Shown piece after piece: positions 3,614-50,853 of a DNA stretch of 64,000 nt. The notes beneath the pieces were generated by a model. The model was given only the letters and a program-made list of their open reading frames with translations. It was not told the origin of the DNA and searched no databases. The position numbers were made by a program, and so were the translations under genes. The DNA is from a virus: the IMG/VR virus record IMGVR_UViG_3300035698_012504, positions 186,694 to 250,693 of that record. The stretch is one strand, 5' to 3'. Position 1 is the stretch's first letter; each line of letters begins with the position of its first letter.

Positions 3614-6136
3614 ATGCCAATAGGTGATTATGATATAAATTCTGGATCGTTTGAGGGAATTACAGGTGCAGATAAAGGACCGGGATTGTCTCCTGCAATG
3701 AATGTACCAGAATCGGCAGGCTCTGGACAGAACCAACTAATAGAAAATACTAGCAAAGAGAGTGCGGCAGGGATTATCGGACTCCCTCCTCAGGCCTCAT
3801 ATAATGTTGGTCCTAATACTGGAGGAGGAGGATCGACTCCTGATATATCTGGATTAATGGAGGGTATGGTATTAAATACTATGCCTGTCTTAGATATTCA
3901 TCCCATGCTTCCTGTATTTTCGAAGTCTAGTGGAGCACAAGCAGGCGCTACATTATACGGATTAAAAGATGCGGGTGCGGATTATAAAAAGATATTAACT
4001 AAGTGCGGGATAGAAGGTGCCGGGGTTAAGATACCTATACAAGTTGCATTTTTAAATGACGTATCTATATCAGAATCATTCAGTGTAGACTTTGGAGAAT
4101 CTTCTTTTGAGAGTATGGGTAATATGGCTTCTCAAAAACTTCAGGAGTTACGATTTGTAACTGGTGAAAAAGAATCAGGGAATGCATTGTCTCAAATTGG
4201 AGAAGATGGAAAAGGAGTGATGGGTGCTTTAAGTAAGTTTGGATTAGGTGCAGCTGGCGGGATTATGAACATGGCTAGTGGTGGGTTAAATGAACTAAAG
4301 GAAGGACTAGGTAATATTCTTGAGGGAGACAAGGTAGACTTTCCAAAAATATGGAAAGGTGTATCTTATACTCCATCTTATTCTGTTACCGTAAGATTAT
4401 ATAATCCCTATCCGAATGATATGACTGCCCATGAGGATAATATAGTTATTCCTGTTGCTAGACTACTAGCAATGGTTGTACCAACATCATCTTCAAACTT
4501 TACATACAGTTATCCTTTAATGTGTAAAGTAACTTGTCCTGGATTGTTTCATATAGATGCAGGATACATATCTGGAATAGATGTTATTAAAGGTGGGGAA
4601 AGTAATGATATTTCTTTTGATCAAAGAGCAGGAAGTGTAGATCTAAAAGTAACATTTCAAGAAGTATATAGTGTAATAATGTCTATGCAAGAAGGAGACA
4701 CTATTGATCCGTTGAGACCAACCTTTGCAAAATATATAGATACTTTAAGAAAGAGTACTACTCCACCAGATATAAAACGTCCGAATGGTAGCAGTAGTTC
4801 TACAAATAAAGGTATCAATTTAATGGATGATTTGATTCCACTCGCACCTGTGGGGGCTTCAGGATTAGACACAAGAGGATTAGAATCCCCATTAAGATTG
4901 AATGTAGATGACCTCGACTTAGGTAAACAATTATCTTTAAACAATGGATCATTCCTAGGACAGAATGAAGCACTCGGTGGAATGTTTAGTGCGACAGATA
5001 GTATAGGAGATCTATTTAACTCTGCGGGAGACCTAGGAGGATTAGGAGATTTAGGAGGACTAGGAGATCTAGGACAGCTTGGGGGATTAGGAGATCTTGG
5101 TGGTGTAACTGATGGTATATTCTCTCCAGTTACAAGTATATTAAGTGGGGGTGGTGGTATAACAGGAAGCCTTGGAAACGCGATGGGTGGGGTTATGGGT
5201 GGACTAGATTCAGTAACAGGAGTGGCTGGCGTCGCCAGTGGTGGGTTAGGATCTCTAGTGACTGGTGGATTAGGAGGACTAACTGGAGGATTGACTGATA
5301 TCTTGGGTGGGTTGTTGGATAGCTTAGATGGATTGACTAGTTCACTTATGGGAGATGGTGTAGGAGATATGCTGACCGGATCATTAGGTGGGTTAATGGG
5401 TAACATGGATATATTGGATAATGGATTTGGCGATACATTAAGTGGAGCATTAGGTGGACTTACTGGAGGACTTAGTGCAGATGCATTTAGTCTAGACGCA
5501 TTAACTGGTAGCCTAGATGGAGATCTATCAGGTAAATTACAAGAAGCTACTAATCTTCTTAGTGGAGTAAGTGGATCTAATCCATTAACGGCGGTTTTAA
5601 ATTCTAATATATCTGGATTGGCCGATGCCGAAGGATTAATGTCGACCATTACATCCTTAAGTGGAGGTATAACAACTGACTTATCTAGTCTTATAGAAGA
5701 TCCAATAAGCAATGCTGGATTAGATTCTAGTATATTGGATAACTTAGATGAATGTATAAGCAAATCTATAGACGTTGAATCATTCTTTGGTGGTATGGAA
5801 ACAGATATGGATTGGGTTGATAAACAAATGCCGGAGATGTTTACATTCGACAATGCTAATTATGCAGACTTATTACCTATTGCTCCGGGCGCTGCTGCCC
5901 CTGCATTACCACCCATATTCTTTACAGATTTAGCAGCGTCCGCAACATCACCAACATATTATACTGGCGCTGGAAAGGTGGATGCTGATGATATGCTAGC
6001 AATATGCGGAGCAACATCAATTATTAAAGAAGCTGGAGAGATAGCAGGTACAATGAAAGATACAATGACTGTTGCGAATGCATCCTTCGGGGTTGCAAAA
6101 AATGAAGTTAGCTTTTGGAACGGCGAGAGCGTATAG
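3614..6136 (+). CDS. Virion structural protein with Gly/Leu/Asp-rich tandem hexapeptide (DLGGLG) repeats
   Basis: 840-aa ORF with an RBS-like GGAGATAACAGA before the ATG. The protein contains (G)DLGGLGDLGGLGDLGQLGGLGDLGG and many GGL/TGGL repeats. Confidence 0.5.
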   Translation: MPIGDYDINSGSFEGITGADKGPGLSPAMNVPESAGSGQNQLIENTSKESAAGIIGLPPQASYNVGPNTGGGGSTPDISGLMEGMVLNTMPVLDIHPMLPVFSKSSGAQAGATLYGLKDAGADYKKILTKCGIEGAGVKIPIQVAFLNDVSISESFSVDFGESSFESMGNMASQKLQELRFVTGEKESGNALSQIGEDGKGVMGALSKFGLGAAGGIMNMASGGLNELKEGLGNILEGDKVDFPKIWKGVSYTPSYSVTVRLYNPYPNDMTAHEDNIVIPVARLLAMVVPTSSSNFTYSYPLMCKVTCPGLFHIDAGYISGIDVIKGGESNDISFDQRAGSVDLKVTFQEVYSVIMSMQEGDTIDPLRPTFAKYIDTLRKSTTPPDIKRPNGSSSSTNKGINLMDDLIPLAPVGASGLDTRGLESPLRLNVDDLDLGKQLSLNNGSFLGQNEALGGMFSATDSIGDLFNSAGDLGGLGDLGGLGDLGQLGGLGDLGGVTDGIFSPVTSILSGGGGITGSLGNAMGGVMGGLDSVTGVAGVASGGLGSLVTGGLGGLTGGLTDILGGLLDSLDGLTSSLMGDGVGDMLTGSLGGLMGNMDILDNGFGDTLSGALGGLTGGLSADAFSLDALTGSLDGDLSGKLQEATNLLSGVSGSNPLTAVLNSNISGLADAEGLMSTITSLSGGITTDLSSLIEDPISNAGLDSSILDNLDECISKSIDVESFFGGMETDMDWVDKQMPEMFTFDNANYADLLPIAPGAAAPALPPIFFTDLAASATSPTYYTGAGKVDADDMLAICGATSIIKEAGEIAGTMKDTMTVANASFGVAKNEVSFWNGESV
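5030..5110 (+). repeat. Tandem 18-nt repeats (gga gat cta gga gga cta) encoding GDLGGL units
   Basis: ggagacctaggaggattaggagatttaggaggactaggagatctaggacagcttgggggattaggagatcttggtggt. Confidence 0.6.
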
Positions 6137-6147
6137 GAAGGAATAAA

Positions 6148-7416
6148 ATGACAGCAAATTATTATGTAGATATAGAGGCCCTTTCTGAACTAGAAGATCT
6201 ATCTAGTTTAGGACAGCTTGGAGAATTAGCATCCCTTGGAGAGCTAGGTAAGCTGGGAGATATTACAGGGATAAGTGAGATGTATAATCTTTACAGATTG
6301 GAAGAACTATCTGCTCTAAGTCAATTAGAACAGCTTGGAGAGCTAGGACAATTAAGTAGATTAAATAATCTTGGGAATAATATTGATATAAAAAGACTCG
6401 CTGATCTAGGAACATTGGGTTACCTTGGTGATCTTGGAGATATGGGAGATGAGTTGTGGGATCTTAGCAAACATAGAACTGACGTTAACGTTGGAGATCT
6501 ATCAAACCTAAATGAATTAGCTGACTTAGTCTCATTAAAAAATTTAGAAAATCTTGAGGTTCTTGGAGTACTTGGAACATTATCAGCATATGAATTTCCA
6601 ACTCTCAATGATGCATCAACATTAAGACTTAAACAAAGTCTAGGGTATCTAATAAATTTATCTAACCTTGGTAAGCTAGGAAACTTATGGAAGTTATCAA
6701 AACTATCAAGACTATCGACACTAGGTGAAAGTGTAACGTATGGAAATTTACATGATCTGCTTTCTGGATTTAGAAGTTTGATGATATCTATATTAGGATA
6801 TATAGATGAGTTGGAAAGAGAAATTGATGGCGGGGTTAATTCTACTACAGTGATAGGGTTACTATCCAATATGACAAATTCAATCAATGGGAATGAACCA
6901 AATATATTTGGAGTAGAAGAGTTAGGAATCTATAGTGTTAATGAAAACACAGGAGTCCATTCATATACTGGGATGGTATATAATCTTTTACAATCGATAG
7001 ACATTTATATAAAAATACTATCTTCTCATATTCCAAAGATTAGTAATATAACTAGTTTCCCAGCAGATATTCCCAGAGGGTTAGATAATATTAATGCTGG
7101 AAATATAGAAAAATTGAAGAACATAAAAAATGCAGATCTAACAGCACCTCTTGGAACTATGTATAGATCTGTACAATCAGAAGTATCGGATCTGTCTGAA
7201 AAAATTACAACATTCCAGTCAGTTATATTAGAAGGTGTCTCCGAAATAGAATTAATTATTTCTACATCCCCCACCCCAGAACGGATTCAATCTAAAATAG
7301 ATATTATGAAACTAACGATAAACGATTCGTTTCTACGAAAATTTGAGGCTACTGTGTCAAATTTATCTGACACAATAGCCGGGGAACTAAGTACGTTTGT
7401 TAATTATCTTAAATAA
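6148..7416 (+). CDS. Repeat-containing protein (LGELG / LSxLxxLG short leucine-rich repeats), probably structural
   Basis: ORF in the track. I chose the ATG at 6148 as start because a purine-rich stretch precedes it. The N-terminal half consists of L-G/S-x-L-x-x-L-G repeats. Confidence 0.4.
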   Translation: MTANYYVDIEALSELEDLSSLGQLGELASLGELGKLGDITGISEMYNLYRLEELSALSQLEQLGELGQLSRLNNLGNNIDIKRLADLGTLGYLGDLGDMGDELWDLSKHRTDVNVGDLSNLNELADLVSLKNLENLEVLGVLGTLSAYEFPTLNDASTLRLKQSLGYLINLSNLGKLGNLWKLSKLSRLSTLGESVTYGNLHDLLSGFRSLMISILGYIDELEREIDGGVNSTTVIGLLSNMTNSINGNEPNIFGVEELGIYSVNENTGVHSYTGMVYNLLQSIDIYIKILSSHIPKISNITSFPADIPRGLDNINAGNIEKLKNIKNADLTAPLGTMYRSVQSEVSDLSEKITTFQSVILEGVSEIELIISTSPTPERIQSKIDIMKLTINDSFLRKFEATVSNLSDTIAGELSTFVNYLK

Positions 7417-21594: not shown

Positions 21595-21978
21595 ATGCCT
21601 AGAGGTAGACCGGCAAAATTAATGACCGCAGATTTAGAAAAATTTAACAAAAAATTACAGGCTACTTTGGTTAGAAAATTAGAATCAGATGATAGTGATA
21701 ACGAATCACTTATCGAATTAGCGATGGCTGGTAGATTTCTACATCAAGTAGACCAAAGAGATTCTGGAAAAATTTCAATAGAGTTGAGAAAAGTTGATGG
21801 ATCGGTTGCACATACTTTATACATTGAACCTGAAGATAGTGAATTACTAGCAGAGTTGATGGCAGATGATGCCAATGAAGTCCTAGTAACGAGTACTAAT
21901 CCTCCTAGCGATACTGAGATCCTTAGTGAAATCATGGCGGAAGATAAAGACTCAATAGACGAAGAGGTTCCCATCTAG
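21595..21978 (+). CDS. Acidic hypothetical protein
   Basis: 127-aa ORF with an RBS-like GAGGAGAAAG. Confidence 0.4.
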   Translation: MPRGRPAKLMTADLEKFNKKLQATLVRKLESDDSDNESLIELAMAGRFLHQVDQRDSGKISIELRKVDGSVAHTLYIEPEDSELLAELMADDANEVLVTSTNPPSDTEILSEIMAEDKDSIDEEVPI

Positions 21979-22000
21979 AGGAACTTAATGTTTTTGTTTT

Positions 22001-22134
22001 GGAGGAGTAGCTCAGTTGGTAGAGCGCATGCCCGTAAAAATGCCCTATTCGATATTTTCCCCTTCAAGGGTTATGAGGAACAGGGTTACTTCGCAAAAAG
22101 CAAGAGGTCGCCAGTTCGAGTCTGGTCTCCTCCA
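22001..22134 (+). tRNA. tRNA gene with a ~60-nt insertion in the anticodon-loop region (candidate intron). Anticodon tentatively GTA (Tyr) if the insertion sits at the canonical 37/38 position.
   Basis: Perfect acceptor stem ggaggag/ctcctcc. Canonical D arm tagctcagttggtagagc and T arm gccagttcgagtctggt. Between them lie 75 nt instead of 17+5, namely catgc-ccgtaaa-[60 nt]-a-gcaag. Confidence 0.5.
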
Positions 22135-22192
22135 AAACAATTTATTTAAATAATATATTAAAAGAATTTAAAATTCTTTTATATTAAAAATT

Positions 22193-22208
22193 TTTAGGAC
22201 AAATAAAA
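22193..22208 (+). promoter_or_regulatory. Promoter-like motif (GGACAAA core) upstream of tRNA-Asn
   Basis: tttaggacaaataaaa. Confidence 0.35.
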
Positions 22209-23271: not shown

Positions 23272-23362
23272 GCCGGGGTCGCATAGTTGGTCGATTGCAC
23301 CGGACTTGTAATCCGGATGGCTTTACGCCGCATCGTAGGTTCGAATCCTACCCTCGGCTCCA
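23272..23362 (+). tRNA. Type-II-shaped tRNA (18-nt variable arm, 3-bp D stem) with anticodon TGT (Thr-decoding) and discriminator U
   Basis: gccgggg/cctcggc acceptor, ccgga-cttgtaa-tccgg anticodon arm, variable arm atggctttacgccgcatc, T arm gtaggttcgaatcctac, CCA encoded. Confidence 0.55.
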
Positions 23363-23872: not shown

Positions 23873-24463
23873 ATGAGTTGGAAATCCAAAGAAGAAAGAC
23901 GCTGTATTGATTGTGATAAAAAGGGTGTTGTAGAAAGAAGACGGTGTAAGGAATGTGTTAAAGAATACAATCGAGCGCGTGCGAAGGAAAGACACGCTCG
24001 GTTGGGAAGACACAATTATGGTATATCCACATGTCCTATATGTGGAAAACCCATGACAATGTGGAGAAAGACCCAGGCAACGCATGCTACATGTATACCT
24101 AAAACGACTGGGGATTATAACTTAGTCGGGAGGTCTCCATCTGGCAGAACATTGGGTCGACAGAAGATGATTGACGCTGGCGTCGATGTCCCAACCGAAT
24201 TCGTTGTTCACCATCTGGACGAAAATCCAGATAATAACGATCTTGGGAATTTGATAGCAGTGAGGCGGTCGTCACACACAACCCTACACAGAAATCTACA
24301 GTATCATAGGTCGCTGTTCCTGAAAGAGAACAGTAAGTATTCCGAGGATTGCTGGAAACCCCTTAGAGATCATCTAACCAAAGCATGGATGGAAACGTCG
24401 AGTGCGAAGGTTCTAAAAATAGATGATATTGGGCAATCAGCAGCCGAGCCTCTAAACTCCTAA
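23873..24463 (+). CDS. HNH endonuclease
   Basis: Cys-rich N-terminus, then VVHHLDENPDNNDLGNLIAVRRSSHTTLH (HNH motif). The GGACAAA promoter-like motif lies 25 nt upstream. Confidence 0.7.
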   Translation: MSWKSKEERRCIDCDKKGVVERRRCKECVKEYNRARAKERHARLGRHNYGISTCPICGKPMTMWRKTQATHATCIPKTTGDYNLVGRSPSGRTLGRQKMIDAGVDVPTEFVVHHLDENPDNNDLGNLIAVRRSSHTTLHRNLQYHRSLFLKENSKYSEDCWKPLRDHLTKAWMETSSAKVLKIDDIGQSAAEPLNS

Positions 24464-31119: not shown

Positions 31120-31692
31120 ATATATTAAATAGTGACTAACAGGTTTCATCTTTGTGGGGGTGACCTGGTTTCGACGTGGGTGAATGGAAGGATGAGTTGC
31201 GTACCGAGGACTCCGATGGCCTCGTAAAAAATCGGAAAACGCTTAATTGCGAAAAACGTAGTAGACTTCGCTAGCCGTGTGGCTTCCAAGATCGCAGATG
31301 TTGTGGCTCCGGCCCCCGCGTTCGCACTTGCTGCCTAATCGGATGAACTAGCTGTCTCGTTCTAGACGCCCTCTATGGGATGAGACAACGACAGAGGGAC
31401 TGGACTCGGTAAGATGTAATCACTTGTAACCGAGAAGAGTACTTACTAGTGGTATAGGCGAAAGGAACCGTGCCTGACGGGTTCTGAGCTGAAACTAAAT
31501 GAAAGGCTATGTACGTAGACGCTTGTGCGGATACACTGACGGACGCGGGTTCGATCAATCTGGTCGACTTGGGAAGTAATTCCCTCGATTAAAGAGTGCT
31601 CATACGGTGAAAGCTAAGTCGTGCAATACGATAAGCCAATACCGTGGGGTTGAGGAAGAAATTCCAAAAGCCCTGTAGAGACTTATAGACAC

Positions 31693-37298: not shown

Positions 37299-37383
37299 AG
37301 GAGGAGTAGCGTAATTGGTAACGCAGCGGTCTTGAAAACCGCCGCCTTCGGGCTTGGGGGTTCGAGTCCCTCCTCCTCCGCCA
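37299..37383 (+). tRNA. tRNA-Ser (anticodon TGA), type II
   Basis: ggaggag/ctcctcc acceptor, tagcgtaattggtaacgc D arm, gcggt-cttgaaa-accgc, 14-nt variable arm, gggggttcgagtccctc T arm, discriminator G, CCA. Confidence 0.8.
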
Positions 37384-37405: not shown

Positions 37406-37951
37406 ATGGATGTCGGAGTGTTCCTAGGAAGAATGTGCCCTATTCATTTAGGACACCAACATGTTATAGAAAAAATGAGATTAGACTATGGCCGAGATTA
37501 TCTTATAATACTAGGAAGTTCAAATGAAATTATTACTCATAGAAACATATTTTCTTACAGGCAGAGGACATCGTACATTAGAATGGTGTATGGGGAAACT
37601 GCCCGTCTAATAGGATTGGGGGATCATGGTGGAAGAAACTTTCTTGATGACTTGGCTGAGTGGCTTGCCGAACTAAAAGATACAATTAAATTAGCTTTTT
37701 ATGGGCAAGATGTTCATCCAATATTTTATAGTGGAAGTGAATTTGATATTAGTTTCTTTGTTAATAATGATATGAGATTTAAGATAGTAAATAGAACTGG
37801 GCCTGGCTCTTATGATGTAGCCGGAGAAGATATAAGAAAACATCTGTTGCGTGAGGAACATGATCAATTAGGAGGACTCCTTGATCCGAGAATTATTCCT
37901 CATGTATTAACTGATTTCGAACAAAACCTAAAAATCCTTTTGTCTATGTAA
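37406..37951 (+). CDS. nadM: Nicotinamide/nicotinate mononucleotide adenylyltransferase (NadM/NadR-type nucleotidyltransferase)
   Basis: The N-terminal GRMCPIHLGH matches the GxFxPxHxGH signature. A later GEDIRKHL segment is SxTxIR-like. 181 aa, the size of archaeal/bacterial NMNATs. Confidence 0.6.
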   Translation: MDVGVFLGRMCPIHLGHQHVIEKMRLDYGRDYLIILGSSNEIITHRNIFSYRQRTSYIRMVYGETARLIGLGDHGGRNFLDDLAEWLAELKDTIKLAFYGQDVHPIFYSGSEFDISFFVNNDMRFKIVNRTGPGSYDVAGEDIRKHLLREEHDQLGGLLDPRIIPHVLTDFEQNLKILLSM

Positions 37952-39457: not shown

Positions 39458-39712
39458 ATGGCTCGGGCGCAAGCTACCAAGAAACGTACCAAACAATCGT
39501 CTGGGGTAAGTTCTGCTCCACTTAAGACATCTACTCATACTGGACAATTCAAAACAACAAAGGCTGGAATACCTGGCGGCGATGTGCTTGGTGCTATAGA
39601 TGAAGCTTTGTCAGGTTCTTCGGATTTGAAAGAGGAGCTGGCCAGGGAGTGGGAGGCGAAGAGGTCCAGCTGCTGTGGTAGCAATTGTTGTGACAGTGAT
39701 GATGGTTATTGA
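39458..39712 (+). CDS. Small Lys/Ser-rich protein with C-terminal Cys cluster
   Basis: 84-aa ORF. Confidence 0.3.
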   Translation: MARAQATKKRTKQSSGVSSAPLKTSTHTGQFKTTKAGIPGGDVLGAIDEALSGSSDLKEELAREWEAKRSSCCGSNCCDSDDGY

Positions 39713-40169
39713 AAACTTAGTAGCTGCTATTTGGGTGTGCCTAGCAGTCGGTTCAATTTCTCTGACTATTACTAAGTCTGTCATATTCTCTCCGATAAGA
39801 GATTTCGTTGAGAAGAGATTTGGACGGGATAGTAAAATAGATGAATTGTTCAACTGTTCATATTGTATGTCACATTGGGTGGCATTATTTCTAGTAGGAA
39901 TATCAGGACTAAGAGTTACGTACTCTAACTTTATTGCAGATTTTATTATCTCCTGGTTCGCTGTCGTATCCATATCGACAGTAATAATTTGGATAGTATA
40001 TAGATCATTTCATTATTTACAAATACCTAATGTCGATAAGTTAAGAAGTTTACTAGAATTATCGAAAGAACGGTTGATGGAGCTGGAGGAGAAGACTACC
40101 AATCTCGAGCAAGAGAATGCAGAGTTGCAGGAATTGCTCGTTAAAAATATTGAGTCCTCACAGGATTGA
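39675..40169 (+). CDS. Membrane protein with C-terminal coiled coil
   Basis: 164-aa ORF: TM helices, then LMELEEKTTNLEQENAELQELL. Confidence 0.4.
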   Translation: MVAIVVTVMMVIENLVAAIWVCLAVGSISLTITKSVIFSPIRDFVEKRFGRDSKIDELFNCSYCMSHWVALFLVGISGLRVTYSNFIADFIISWFAVVSISTVIIWIVYRSFHYLQIPNVDKLRSLLELSKERLMELEEKTTNLEQENAELQELLVKNIESSQD

Positions 40170-40196: not shown

Positions 40197-40238
40197 GAGA
40201 GGCCCTAAACAGATATTGATTGGGCCTCTCATTTTTTG
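40197..40238 (+). terminator. Rho-independent terminator
   Basis: gagaggccc-(16 nt)-gggcctctc followed by attttttg. Confidence 0.7.
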
Positions 40239-40250
40239 AAAGGAAAGGAT

Positions 40251-41789
40251 ATGAAAGCACCACCTGGTATGGAGGATGGTATGTCTTCCAAGGTTGTTGA
40301 CGCGACGAGTGGAGAAAGTTCCAATCCATGGGTTGATAGACGCGGACTGGCATTACTTACAGACTTCTACGAATTAACAATGGGTGCAGGGTTTTTTAAG
40401 ACTGGCAAAGCAGAAGATGAATCATGCTTTGAATATTTCTTCAGAGGTCTTCCTGAGCACAATGGAGTTGGTGTCTTCTGTGGAATCCAATCTGTTCTCA
40501 AGTATCTCACGCACTTCAGATTCACTGAGGATGACATATATACTTTAGAACGTACTAAAATGTTTACAGGCGAATATCTAAATTACTTGAAAAATATGGA
40601 GCTGAAACTCACGGTCAGGGCTGCTAAAGAGGGAACACTTGTTTTCCCTGGCGAGCCCCTAGTCCAAGTTTCAGGTCCATTAATTCAGTGTCAATTAATT
40701 GAGAGTGCCCTCCTTAATTTTCTTAATTTTCAAACTTTAATAGCGACAAAAGCTGCCAGAATGGTAAGAGCAGCTAACCATGAAATGGTACTTGACATGG
40801 GATTGAGAAGAGCACAAGGCCCCGATGGTGCTCTATCTTCATCGCGCGCACAATACATTGGTGGTTGTTCATCAACATCAAATACTCTTGCACATAAATA
40901 CTTCGGAATTCCAGTCAAAGGAACAATGGCTCACTCATGGGTAATGATCTTCGATACTGAGATTGAATCGTTCCGAGCATATGCTGATACCTTTCCAGAA
41001 AGTTGTGCGCTGTTAGTAGATACATACGACACTATTAGATCAGGTGTACCAAATGCAATAACAGTATTTAAAGAACTGGCAAAACACAATCCGATGATTA
41101 GACCAGCAATACGATTAGACTCCGGTGACCTTGCAAAGCTAAGTAAACAAGCACACCAGATGTTTGTAGATGCAGGGTTCAAAGATCCTCTCATTGTCGC
41201 ATCGAATGACCTTGACGAACATTTGATTGCAGATCTTAAGAGACAAGGTGCCAAAATTAATGCTTGGGGAGTTGGAACAAAACTCACTACAGCATATGAT
41301 CAACCAGCTCTTGGCGGAGTCTACAAATTGGTAGCAGTGAAGGAGGGAGAAACTTGGGCTCCTAAAATAAAAGTTTCATCAAATATAGACAAAATAACAA
41401 ACCCTGGGCGTCACGATGTCGTTCGATTTTTGGATGAAACTGATTCACCAATTGGGGATGTGATATACGAACAAGGGGAAGCGAAGAATGTCGCCGGAGT
41501 TGGAACTGTTGTTGTAACTGACGCAACCAATCTCTGGAAGGAAGTAAAAATAAGAGGAGCCCATAAAAGGGTGAATCTATTAGATGATGTTTTTGTAAAT
41601 GGATCGACTGTCAACGTAGATACTAGAACTATTGCACAAATAAGAACCGATGTAATACTTCATCTAGATAGATTGGATGATGAATTCAAGAGACTTCTAA
41701 ATCCTGAATATTATAAGGTAGCTCTTTCAACTGGATTAGGTGAAACAAAGAAACGGCTCTTGCAAGAGGCACAAGATATGGAGGGATAA
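40251..41789 (+). CDS. pncB: Nicotinate phosphoribosyltransferase (NAPRT/PncB family)
   Basis: LALLTDFYELTMGAGFFKTGK...ESCFEYFFRGLP resembles the NAPRT N-terminus (ALLTDLYQ.TMA.GYW...FELFFR). GTMAHS motif present. RBS AAAGGAAAGGAT before the ATG at 40251. Confidence 0.8.
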   Translation: MKAPPGMEDGMSSKVVDATSGESSNPWVDRRGLALLTDFYELTMGAGFFKTGKAEDESCFEYFFRGLPEHNGVGVFCGIQSVLKYLTHFRFTEDDIYTLERTKMFTGEYLNYLKNMELKLTVRAAKEGTLVFPGEPLVQVSGPLIQCQLIESALLNFLNFQTLIATKAARMVRAANHEMVLDMGLRRAQGPDGALSSSRAQYIGGCSSTSNTLAHKYFGIPVKGTMAHSWVMIFDTEIESFRAYADTFPESCALLVDTYDTIRSGVPNAITVFKELAKHNPMIRPAIRLDSGDLAKLSKQAHQMFVDAGFKDPLIVASNDLDEHLIADLKRQGAKINAWGVGTKLTTAYDQPALGGVYKLVAVKEGETWAPKIKVSSNIDKITNPGRHDVVRFLDETDSPIGDVIYEQGEAKNVAGVGTVVVTDATNLWKEVKIRGAHKRVNLLDDVFVNGSTVNVDTRTIAQIRTDVILHLDRLDDEFKRLLNPEYYKVALSTGLGETKKRLLQEAQDMEG

Positions 41790-41790
41790 T

Positions 41791-43722
41791 ATGCAATTAT
41801 GTAAAATTGGCACAACATGTATCTCAACATTAGTGGGTGATTTCGAAGGGAATGTGAATAGAATAATTAGTGCAATTAAACTTGCCGAGAGACAAGGTGT
41901 ACAGATTCTAGTAACTCCAGAGTTGGGAGTAACCGGATATAGTCTGGGGGACCGAGTTCTTTGGGATGATATTGAATTGAAGTGCGAAGAAGCTATGCGA
42001 AAAATAAAAGAGCATTGTTCTAAAGTTACTGTGTTTGTTGGTCTTCCGATATTCGCAGATGGAAAAATATATAATGGAATGGTTTGTATTTGTGGTAGAA
42101 AGTATTGTGGGGGATTTCTAAAAGCCCACCTACCAAGTTATAATATATTTTATGAAACAAGAAATTGGTCTCCGTATGATGGAGAAGATAGCATACATCA
42201 TGATTTATATGGATACTTAGGTCATAATATTATAGAAATTGGTGGGGTTAAAATATTTGGGGAAATATGTGAAGATGTTTGGGCGAATTCCCAGACTGTT
42301 TCTCAAGCAGTTAGTGGAGAAAATGGAGCCGTACTCGTTGTCAATGGTAGTGCTTCTCCATTCTCACCACAAAAGAATGTATCTAGAATGAAATTGATTC
42401 AGACAACTGCACAAAAAAATATATGCGTATATGCATATGCAAATCAATTAGGATTAGACGAAGGCAGGACTGTATTCGATGGTGGTGGAATCATCGCATC
42501 TCCGGATGGTATATTGTCTGCTGGGAAAATACTTAGTGATGCTGCGTTTACTATTAACACTGCCGTAGTAGATTTTGATAAGATAAGAAGACAAAGAAGA
42601 GAAAACAATACATGGAAATCTATAAAATCGAAACATATGTCGCGGATCCATAGCGAATATACCAAACCTATTTTAACAAATTATCAACTGATAAAAGAAA
42701 TGCTAGAATGCGATAGATACAAAGAAGCACATTACTCTTCTGCAATAGATGAACGCCAAATATTTAAGGCATTATCTCTTGCGTTAAGAGATTATTTTAT
42801 TAAGGCTGGTTGTTTTAATCATATCCTAATTGGTCTATCTGGAGGTAGAGATAGCGCATTATGTCTATTGGCTGCCCATACTGCAGTTCATAGCATGGGT
42901 AAACTCCCATCCGAAATAATAAAGACAGTGTATTTAGATCATAGTAGAAATAGTAGTGACAGAACAAAACAAGCAGCAATTGCTTTAGCTGGGGCACTAT
43001 GTATTCCGATTGAAGTAGTTAATATTGACGAAGCATCTGATATATCAAACACATTCGCGCATGATATGTTAAAGAAAAGTTCTAATCTTGATAATCCTCC
43101 GTTGGATCGAATCACTATGCAAAATACACAGGCAAGAGTTCGTGGGGCATTCATGCTCAACTGGGCAAATGCAATAGGTGGATTAGTAATAGTAACTGCG
43201 AATATGAGTGAAACTGCTGTGGGATATTGTACGACCGGTGGAGACAATCAAGGCGGGTATTCACTCCTAACAAATGTTCCGAAGACTATGGTTAATTCCA
43301 TTCTAGTTGACAGAACCATTGTATACAAACCAATGGGGAATCCTATTTCAAAAGCCATTCGAGAAATATTGAATATGAAACCAAGTGCAGAACTGGAACC
43401 AGATCAAACAGATGAAGATGATCTAATGCCATATCAAGTATTGGATAATTTACTAGTATTATATATAAAAGAAAGAAGACCAATAATAGAATGTTTAGAA
43501 ATTCTGAAGGTGATGTACGAAGTTGATTTTTATATATTTGGAAAGCTGACTAAATATTGTAAACGATTTATTCAGATGTTAGTTAAAAATCAATGGAAGA
43601 GAGACCAGCATCCAGTGGGTCCAAGAGTAATGGACTTCGATCTCGATCCAAAAACTGGATTCAGATTCCCAGTACTCCAAGTACTAGAGGAAGATCTTGA
43701 GTCACTAGAAGGGAAGTTATGA
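41791..43722 (+). CDS. nadE: Glutamine-dependent NAD+ synthetase (N-terminal nitrilase/CN-hydrolase domain + C-terminal NAD synthetase PP-loop domain)
   Basis: CN-hydrolase triad context VTPELGVTGY ... ICEDVW. PP-loop LIGLSGGRDSALC. ATG at 41791 after GGAGGGA. Confidence 0.8.
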   Translation: MQLCKIGTTCISTLVGDFEGNVNRIISAIKLAERQGVQILVTPELGVTGYSLGDRVLWDDIELKCEEAMRKIKEHCSKVTVFVGLPIFADGKIYNGMVCICGRKYCGGFLKAHLPSYNIFYETRNWSPYDGEDSIHHDLYGYLGHNIIEIGGVKIFGEICEDVWANSQTVSQAVSGENGAVLVVNGSASPFSPQKNVSRMKLIQTTAQKNICVYAYANQLGLDEGRTVFDGGGIIASPDGILSAGKILSDAAFTINTAVVDFDKIRRQRRENNTWKSIKSKHMSRIHSEYTKPILTNYQLIKEMLECDRYKEAHYSSAIDERQIFKALSLALRDYFIKAGCFNHILIGLSGGRDSALCLLAAHTAVHSMGKLPSEIIKTVYLDHSRNSSDRTKQAAIALAGALCIPIEVVNIDEASDISNTFAHDMLKKSSNLDNPPLDRITMQNTQARVRGAFMLNWANAIGGLVIVTANMSETAVGYCTTGGDNQGGYSLLTNVPKTMVNSILVDRTIVYKPMGNPISKAIREILNMKPSAELEPDQTDEDDLMPYQVLDNLLVLYIKERRPIIECLEILKVMYEVDFYIFGKLTKYCKRFIQMLVKNQWKRDQHPVGPRVMDFDLDPKTGFRFPVLQVLEEDLESLEGKL

Positions 43723-50268: not shown

Positions 50269-50853
50269 CTACACGGCACTTTTCCAATATTTACCTTGTA
50301 GTATTTTACCTACCATTGTTCTATCAACACTAAAGATATTCGCTATCTTCTGATGTGTTAATTTTTCTTCTTCTCTTAATCTAAATATCTCTGGTATATC
50401 TGATTCTTTTAGTTTTGTATTCGGATGATTATCTCCTCTTGGGGCAGCCGCTTTTATTCTATCTTTATGTTCCTCTGATAGCTTTCGCACCTTAGTCTTC
50501 GGGGCAGAGTTTAATGAACCCCTACTCAATATATTAGTTAGATTTTCTAATCCAAATTCTTTTATACATTGTTCTTCCATATTCAATGCATCTGATTCTG
50601 AGACACCATATAATATTTTTTGAGATATTATATGTCCTACTTCATTCACGATCTTTCTATTTTTATTATAAGTCTTAATTCCATCTCGTGGCTTATACCC
50701 TTTATTAACATCTTGTTCATGATGATTAATCCTATTCCCTTTTCCTTTTCCAAAATAATATGGTTTAAATAAAAATGAAACGTTGAGTACCTGGGATGCA
50801 AATCTCCCAGGTACCCTCGGATCCAATAAGACATATGTATAAAAATTATTCAT
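50269..50853 (-). CDS. GIY-YIG homing endonuclease with C-terminal helix-turn-helix
   Basis: FYTYVLLD...YYFGKGKGNRINHH (GIY-YIG core). C-terminal LTHQKIANIFSVDRTMVGKIL. Confidence 0.7.
   Translation of the reverse strand: MNNFYTYVLLDPRVPGRFASQVLNVSFLFKPYYFGKGKGNRINHHEQDVNKGYKPRDGIKTYNKNRKIVNEVGHIISQKILYGVSESDALNMEEQCIKEFGLENLTNILSRGSLNSAPKTKVRKLSEEHKDRIKAAAPRGDNHPNTKLKESDIPEIFRLREEEKLTHQKIANIFSVDRTMVGKILQGKYWKSAV

Follow-up and report, generated by a model that had tools for sequence, protein, structure and literature searches.

A transfer RNA (tRNA)-like gene of 134 nucleotides (nt) lies at positions 22001-22134 on the plus strand of a 64,000-nt stretch of viral DNA (IMG/VR virus record IMGVR_UViG_3300035698_012504, positions 186,694 to 250,693), which we call the window and whose own numbering is used for it throughout. 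An earlier note, made from the sequence alone, had read this gene as an intron-containing tRNA, possibly tRNA-Tyr(GTA). We find it probable that the gene instead encodes a Y-RNA-like RNA, which uses a tRNA as its scaffold and carries a Ro60-type module, rather than a tRNA that decodes. The module belongs to a family that covaries and is linked to Ro60/TROVE genes, and we therefore prefer a protein-binding module of the Y-RNA kind to a spliced intron. In its best-supported interpretation, the window RNA is a new topological variant of the YrlA-type Y RNAs, drawn from a widespread family that has no Rfam model. We infer that the window copy binds Ro60, stays unspliced and has a function downstream of that binding.

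Y RNAs and Ro60 are conserved from bacteria to humans. The family described here is large and places a Ro60-type module inside ordinary tRNA genes of normal gene order, at several positions, in many uncultivated phages and in crAss001. If YrlA Y RNAs arose from tRNAs, as has been proposed, this family offers a concrete intermediate, and it also accounts for a class of 'broken' phage tRNA genes that standard annotation misses or that are misread as intron-containing. Moreover, it ties phage tRNA arrays to the Ro60/RtcB biology of RNA repair, and hence to the arms race over tRNA-cleaving defences.

The window gene and its module

The tRNA scaffold of the window gene is authentic. The Rfam tRNA model aligns to it end to end with 48.2 bits (gathering score 29) and leaves 66 nt of the anticodon region unaligned. 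Of its arms, only the anticodon arm departs from the canonical form; the acceptor, D and T arms are perfect. The earlier note was thus right about the canonical acceptor stem (ggaggag/ctcctcc), D arm and T arm, and about an insert of ~60 nt in the anticodon region. The bounds that it gave the insert (22039..22098, with a loop of ccgtaa plus a) proved arbitrary: removal of the insert in silico scores the same at nine positions, each of which leaves an A:A mismatch in the stem and no U33, and the conserved element itself spans ~22033-22091. ARAGORN at default settings missed the gene. The locus is base-for-base the same in the independent assemblies Logan SRR5581654 and ENA ERZ27316076, which rules out an assembly artefact.

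The module belongs to the family that we call class A. In the window copy it reads, from 5' to 3', CGUAAAAAUG CCCUAUUC GAUAUUUU CCCCUUCAAGGG UUAUGAG GAACAGGG UUACUU, and the whole gene reads GGAGGAG-UA-GCUC-AGUUGGUA-GAGC-G-CAUGC-C-module-CGCAAAAA-GCAAG-AGGUC-GCCAG-UUCGAGU-CUGGU-CUCCUCC-A (Table 1). A covariance model (R2), built from 23 copies in TROVE-containing loci only and with the window left out, matches window positions 22033-22107 with 44.5 bits (E = 2e-8). This is the sole hit in the 64 kb, and its score is as high as those of TROVE-adjacent copies. Helix P1 of the window copy is intact except for one A-C mismatch. The module replaces the anticodon loop, and it does likewise in two aligned whole RNAs from other loci, L094c and L049c, in which the GUAAA(A)UG linker of the window copy also recurs. 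A TROVE open reading frame (ORF) lies ~450 nt downstream of L094c. By inspection, an alternative local hairpin, CUUCGC/GCAAG, is possible in the 3' linker region of the window copy.

Searches for relatives of the window phage, by exact insert pattern in viral contigs, by an intron-less orthologue and by neighbouring proteins, found none, and GenBank phages have only a generic tRNA 5' half in common with the window gene. A terminator-like hairpin with a T run (21965-21986, plus strand) ends the upstream ORF 14 nt before the gene. We found no convincing sigma-70 promoter 5' of the gene.

Table 1. Parts of the tRNA-like gene, in window positions
Feature	Position	Strand	Basis or remark
Acceptor stem, 5' strand GGAGGAG	22001..22007	+	7/7 pairs with 22127-22133; Rfam tRNA alignment
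D arm GCUC-AGUUGGUA-GAGC	22010..22025	+	Rfam tRNA alignment
Position 26, then anticodon-stem-like 5' strand CAUGC, then C	22026..22032	+	4/5 pairs with GCAAG 22100-22104, one A:A mismatch
A-rich 5' linker CGUAAAAAUG	22033..22042	+	GUAA 22034-37 complementary to UUAC 22086-89
P1 helix, 5' strand CCCUAUUC	22043..22050	+	pairs with 22078-22085; family covariation
Pyrimidine-rich internal strand GAUAUUUU, J1/2 and short P1b	22051..22058	+	counterpart of class A UUUUCYC and rsr-linked CCUUGYC
P2 apical hairpin CCC-CUUCAA-GGG	22059..22070	+	RNAfold prediction; homologous hairpins often GNRA-capped
Purine-rich internal strand UUAUGAG	22071..22077	+	degenerate counterpart of the Ro60-binding motif GNCGAA(N)G
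P1 helix, 3' strand GAACAGGG	22078..22085	+	covariation; covariance-model alignment
Invariant tail UUACUU	22086..22091	+	counterpart of the conserved YrlA YUAY
3' linker CGCAAAAA and anticodon-stem-like 3' strand GCAAG	22092..22104	+	without canonical 7-nt anticodon loop
Variable loop AGGUC and T arm GCCAG-UUCGAGU-CUGGU	22105..22126	+	Rfam tRNA alignment; T arm itself 22110-26
Acceptor stem, 3' strand CUCCUCC, and discriminator A	22127..22134	+	CCA not encoded

The class A family and its Ro60/TROVE neighbours

How widespread is the module? We scanned IMG/VR for the D arm of the window gene followed by a T arm 60-90 nt downstream. This yielded 106 loci; the acceptor stem is perfect in nearly all of them, and about a third have the class A element. 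A class A covariance model then gave exactly one copy in the window and 57 hits in viral loci, which amount to 48 distinct sequences (28 in the first pass); two further copies are found in the cultured phage crAss001. The copies often number two to four per tRNA array and also occur in tRNAs with other D arms. They are inserted mostly at 28/29, in the anticodon stem, and also at 26/27, in the D loop and at 33/34; one tRNA has two. In other phages the module-bearing tRNAs duplicate intact tRNAs of the same anticodon in the same arrays, and are therefore not needed for decoding.

Class A copies share a common architecture. A variable A-rich linker at the 5' end often contains GUA (by inspection, GUA or GUG in ~70% of members). 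P1 has 8-10 base pairs (bp) and always opens with C and closes with G. Inside it lie a pyrimidine-rich UUUUCYC strand, a small P2 hairpin that is often GNRA-capped and a purine-rich G-N-Y-G-W-W strand. The P1 3' strand follows, and then an invariant G-UUACUU tail. Among the 48 unique copies, 46 have G[UA]UAC and 42 have [CU]G[AU][AU], and the strict motif GNCGAA is present in two.

P1 covaries across the family. Its positions can pair in 83.5% of alignment cells, against at most 50% in controls with slid partners; 7/8 pairs vary on both sides, and 0/500 shuffles match the observed values. The untrimmed alignment A1 was used, as a trimmed MAFFT alignment split P1. Moreover, in tandem phage units P1 pairs better within a unit than between units, which argues that the hairpin-closed form in tRNA order is the conserved structure.

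The family is linked in the genome to TROVE, the most frequent Pfam family among the ORFs of class A phage loci. We confirmed TROVE in nine of these loci, usually immediately adjacent and on the same strand. With a hidden Markov model (HMM) built for this analysis, TROVE ORFs turned up in 13 of the 35 viral loci that bear the element, and in 44 of the 226 loci gathered by the tRNA-gap DNA pattern alone. In Bacteroides phage crAss001 (L234, MH675552), class A copies at 4622-4700 and 4864-4937 (47.9 and 38.9 bits) sit directly after the TROVE gene gp96, in the unannotated 900-nt gap between gp96 and gp95; GenBank annotation was examined for this phage only, and both copies are unannotated there. 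Together, gp96 and its two adjacent RNAs make a tractable cultured system for studying binding and processing. Also in this neighbourhood are gp97, a DUF1360 gene, and gp91, which is of the SPFH/Band-7 type; a DUF1360 protein is encoded in the window too (39675-40169).

The linkage extends to bacteria. The same DNA pattern in cellular genomes retrieved interrupted tRNAs in arrays of Deinococcus, Scytonema, Gemmatimonadota, Chitinophaga and others, and the ORFs beside them are enriched for Ro60 (TROVE and vWA_Ro60) and RtcB. Four of the 12 bacterial loci sampled have a Ro60 gene directly downstream on the same strand, and all four carry a GGGUUAYC-type insert. The same architecture stands directly upstream of rsr, the gene for Ro60 (Rsr), in Deinococcus, Scytonema and Gemmatimonadota. 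These rsr-linked inserts carry the published Y-RNA motifs, in the order CCUUGYC, hairpin, GGSCGAAG, stem and UUAY. Class A appears from its sequences to be a diverged version of this rsr-linked Ro60 module. Some class A members (L046) retain GCCGAAUAG with CUUUGCC, and in Microcystis phage Mvi-JY20 a canonical GACGAAG and the class A tail GGUUACUUC occur together, next to the TROVE gene of that phage.

How might the window RNA work? We propose that a structured module of ~57 nt takes the place of the anticodon loop and is homologous to the module through which Y RNAs of bacteria and phages bind Ro60. An L-shaped, tRNA-like 'effector' domain would be formed by the acceptor, D and T arms. P1, the bulged helix of the Y-strand and G-N-Y-G-W-W strand, P2 and a kink at UUAC would together dock a ring protein of the Ro60 family, whose gene would lie in another part of the phage genome or in the host. 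This ribonucleoprotein may tether or gate RNA-processing enzymes such as PNPase, as in Ro60-Y RNA complexes, or alternatively may serve as a cofactor of RtcB-type RNA repair. A plausible outcome would be that RNAs are protected or repaired during infection.

However, several observations weigh against a Y-RNA-like role for the window gene. First, in most of the other members of the family the anticodon arm that flanks the insert is flawless. Second, UUAUGAG of the window copy matches GNCGAAG poorly, and the strict motif is as rare in the family as noted above (2/48). The class A model misses the canonical rsr-linked variants, and the Rfam YrlA model misses class A loci at E <= 1. Because neither model detects the other group, the homology of class A with the canonical module rests on architecture, short motifs and a shared gene neighbourhood. 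Third, tblastn, HMM and Pfam searches found no TROVE/Ro60 homologue in the 64-kb window, which is part of the phage genome. A Ro60 gene within ~4 kb on the same strand is a hallmark of YrlA RNAs; the window copy lacks such a neighbour, and many other family members have one. Finally, the stretch examined contains no TROVE gene at several of the loci that bear the element, and one subgroup adjoins an uncharacterised ORF of ~700 amino acids instead.

Introns, decay and other partners

The foremost alternative is that the insert is a genuine tRNA intron, of a novel type that depends on proteins: an endonuclease, possibly recruited via Ro60, would excise it and an RNA ligase like RtcB would join the exons, with a functional tRNA as the result. 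For the window gene we consider this unlikely. The case for it comes from the rest of the family. In-silico splicing works in most other members, where the flanks, once joined, give a perfect anticodon stem and a loop of 7 nt that has both U33 and A37 (Asn GUU, Lys UUU, Thr UGU, Cys GCA and Arg). Such flawless arms weigh against a pure Y-RNA role, which does not predict them, whereas excision would. Insertion at several tRNA positions, and twice in one tRNA, is also the pattern expected of introns. RtcB genes lie near the bacterial variants and, by inspection, GUA...UAC pairing in many copies brings both junctions close to each other. Excision, perhaps with RtcB as the ligase, is a live alternative for members with well-kept anticodon arms.

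The window copy does not fit this explanation. In-silico splicing fails here, no deletion giving a canonical anticodon arm: the best splice still has the A:A mismatch and C33, where a 5-bp stem and a 7-nt loop with U33 and R37 would be expected of a functional elongator tRNA. The identity tRNA-Tyr(GTA) is accordingly not supported, and the calls made by ARAGORN in intron mode are mutually inconsistent and forced (Leu-gag with a 41-nt intron and Phe-aaa). A brute-force deletion scan scored by ARAGORN accepted too many variants to be informative. Additionally, the distance from core to 3' junction varies from +5 to +11 nt in class A, which implies that the core does not set the cut sites. Bacteria have no known endonuclease for tRNA splicing (10.1101/312249), and the module-bearing tRNAs are redundant with the intact copies in their arrays.

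The known kinds of tRNA intron fare no better. Both bulge-helix-bulge (BHB) and group I introns interrupt tRNA genes, and BHB introns do so at non-canonical positions as well. However, BHB splicing has no need of a conserved internal structure, and the window insert has one. The likeness to archaeal/eukaryal-type introns suggested earlier was not upheld. The 134-nt RNA contains 0 strict hBHBh' motifs (two 3-nt bulges with a 4-bp helix between them), and shuffled sequences average 2.2; for relaxed forms the counts are 28 and 31, respectively, and none brackets the insert. As the earlier note had it, ~60 nt is far too small for a group I intron, whose core (P3-P9) exceeds ~200 nt; the insert lacks such a core, and no non-tRNA Rfam hit fell below E 2. 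The insert matches no Rfam family besides tRNA (window 21950-22200). Nothing relevant to phage tRNA mini-introns appeared in the literature searched. Giant-virus contigs (GVMAG; L003, L012, L048, L070, L079 and L096) have tRNA-Tyr(GUA) genes with 42-64 nt inserts at 37/38; these are ordinary eukaryote-type introns, unrelated to the window module.

Could the modules instead be functional inserts in competent phage tRNAs? They would then be spliced by a Ro60/RtcB-linked pathway, recruit Ro60-ligase repair or act as decoys against tRNA-cleaving defences, and the window form would be a derived cofactor. We regard this as quite unlikely. The module-bearing tRNAs are mostly Asn-GUU, Lys-UUU and Thr-UGU, species that are targets of anticodon nucleases such as PARIS AriB (PMC12409363). 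If true, this scenario would mean that bacteria and phages splice tRNAs by a Ro60/RtcB-linked pathway not known before, or that the modules serve in counter-defence.

We think it very unlikely that the window gene is in decay, having lost its function as a tRNA or Y-RNA-like gene when an insertion or recombination inactivated it. The non-canonical anticodon arm (A:A mismatch, no U33) and the lack of a nearby Ro60 gene would agree with decay. The earlier note correctly observed that the tRNA-Ser at 37300 has the same 7-bp acceptor stem, a hint of duplication. Its suggestion of a one-off product of duplication and recombination is not supported, since the insert belongs to a large RNA family that covaries and has genomic links to Ro60/TROVE. 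Decay is also at odds with the perfect acceptor, D and T arms, with a module score on a par with TROVE-adjacent copies, with the conservation of 'loop-replaced' homologues beside TROVE genes in other phages and with the identical sequence in independent samples.

Slimmer still is the chance that the partner is a protein other than Ro60, for example one of the uncharacterised ~700-amino-acid proteins or an SPFH/Band-7 protein, which would bring the RNA closer to the Band-7-associated tRNA-like RNA (b7a-tRNA) than to a Y RNA. Band_7 proteins are encoded in three class A loci and near the crAss001 copies, ORFs of ~700 amino acids without a Pfam match adjoin the L006/L031/L093 subgroup, and the strict Ro60 motif is rare in class A. 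However, TROVE is by far the commonest neighbour and in most cases the very next gene.

A small self-cleaving or self-splicing ribozyme inside the tRNA is hardly credible: the structure is compact, conserved and covarying, with an invariant single-stranded tail by the 3' junction, but no Rfam ribozyme family matches even at E <= 10, invariant nucleotides are few, the linkers between core and junctions vary in length, the YUAY of Y RNAs accounts for the tail and the TROVE linkage points to protein binding. We also set aside readings of the tail as the Kid/PemK toxin site UUACU or the IS608 target TTAC, and as a pairing partner of D-loop GGUAG, as YUAY explains it better.

Genomic setting and known systems

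Other inserts occur in phage and bacterial tRNAs. A second type, class B, differs in its hairpin, contains the motif ACAGCAA and likewise stands at 28/29, mostly in Lys-UUU and Asn-GUU tRNAs (viral loci L007, L024-L026, L034, L045, L047, L055, L057, L071, L086, L091, L095 and L097; genome loci L204, L227 and L230). ORFs in several class B loci match the TROVE HMM weakly (E 1e-6 to 1e-11). In five loci (L022, L027, L028, L081 and L088), an anticodon-loop insert resembles a mini-tRNA, with an acceptor-like stem of 7 bp, arms similar to D and T arms, and ACC as its tail; such inserts could be substrates of RNase P or RNase Z. Finally, a Bacteroidota variant of the module (AAAUUAYC, hairpin, GGUCAA and the tail CUUACUUC) lies inside tRNAs of chromosomal tRNA arrays in Fluviicola, Taishania, Raineya, Chitinophaga (including isolates) and Microscilla (L114, L117, L133, L140, L145, L166 and L182). 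Its neighbours include RtcB in L117 and a conserved uncharacterised ORF of ~745 amino acids in L114, L117 and L166.

The window comes from a large tailed phage, and besides the gene described here it has ten tRNAs, a transfer-messenger RNA (tmRNA), a tail sheath, a T4-type baseplate protein and genes of NAD synthesis. The tmRNA (31164-31557, plus strand) is a full-length RF00023 match of 102.4 bits within the tRNA-rich region. A tRNA-Thr(UGU) of 91 nt (23272-23362, plus strand) has an extra stem-loop, GGCUUUACGCC, in its variable region, and such a long variable arm is unusual for a Thr tRNA. An HNH endonuclease gene (23873-24463, plus strand) lies inside the tRNA array, and a GIY-YIG (LEM-3-like) endonuclease gene lies at 50269-50853 on the minus strand. 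An HNH gene has been reported upstream of cyanobacterial tRNA L-arrays too (PMC8421152). Three genes near one another on the plus strand encode a cytidylyltransferase-like protein, possibly of NadD/NMNAT type (37406-37951), a nicotinate phosphoribosyltransferase (40236-41789) and a glutamine-dependent NAD synthase (41740-43722). Together, these genes would make up a phage route of NAD+ synthesis, possibly to counter NAD-depleting host defences.

How does the window RNA compare with RNAs already described? The b7a-tRNA was predicted by Burroughs and Aravind 2016, as cited in 10.1101/312249. As described in that citation, it is a tRNA-like noncoding RNA proposed as a cofactor of RtcB-centred RNA repair and is occasionally next to Rsr, features that recall the class A family. 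Band-7 genes occur in some class A loci, and none was found in the window.

A precedent comes from a phage. The Ro60 protein of Thermus phage phiLo binds the hairpin CGAA RNAs Yrl1 and Yrl2, which are encoded beside it, and assembles with host PNPase (PMC12135203). As short hairpin RNAs by a phage Ro60 gene, Yrl1 and Yrl2 are an experimental precedent for a hairpin-closed Ro60 module. Unlike the window RNA, they have a canonical CGAA and are not described within a tRNA scaffold.

Among the closest known RNAs are the YrlA Y RNAs, which adjoin Ro60 genes in >250 bacteria and 22 phages (Chen et al. 2014, PMC4201824). YrlA RNAs mimic tRNAs: besides a tRNA-like domain they have the motif GNCGAAN0-1G, which binds Ro60, and a YUAY that is conserved (PMC4201824), and the UA of YUAY gives a conserved kink (10.1101/312249). 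YrlA (RF02553) and the window RNA have in common a tRNA-like domain, a conserved D arm (GCUCA..GGUAGAGC) and a GUUCGA T loop; the D arm of the window gene is essentially that of the Rfam YrlA consensus (GCUCAauuuGGUAGAGC), with an identical core. With the window's family, YrlA also shares a stem with a G-N-C/U-G-A/U-A/U strand followed by YUAY (UUAC at 22086-22089 in the window), the location beside Ro60/TROVE genes and the occurrence in phages. The YrlA model, whose gathering score is 69 bits, has no hit on window 21950-22200 even at E <= 10, and its only hits are sub-threshold ones (24-32 bits) on the rsr-linked bacterial variants.

The order of the parts sets the two apart. YrlA runs from T arm through a closed acceptor-like stem to D arm, and its Ro60 stem is formed by the ends of the RNA (PMC4201824). 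In contrast, the window RNA is in normal tRNA order, with the D arm before the T arm, an open 7-bp acceptor stem and a hairpin-closed module; its module also lacks the strict GNCGAAG. Because arm order and closed end differ in this way, the window RNA and YrlA are circular permutations of each other.

Deinococcus makes this relation visible. For Yrn1, a Y RNA of Deinococcus radiodurans, and in the model of a dimeric-tRNA origin, the arms of the Y RNAs derive from tRNAs, and tRNA arrays that lie upstream of rsr encode the RNAs; unlike in that model, the window RNA is a single unit. In Deinococcus altitudinis (L160), two tandem module-bearing tRNAs (6921-7221, minus strand) stand directly upstream of rsr. 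The Rfam YrlA alignment there (30.5 bits, below threshold) begins at GCCGAAG inside one insert, continues through UUAC, which aligns to 'CUAc' of the model, the T arm and the acceptor 3' strand, and then enters the next interrupted tRNA, taking in its acceptor 5' strand, D arm and CUUGUC. Since this alignment spans two units, we conclude that the inserts are a hairpin-closed Ro60-binding module and that the interrupted tRNAs are circular permutations of YrlA. This relation fits the published proposal that YrlA descended from dimeric tRNA transcripts (10.1101/312249), and the tandem pair of D. altitudinis looks like a living example of that origin.

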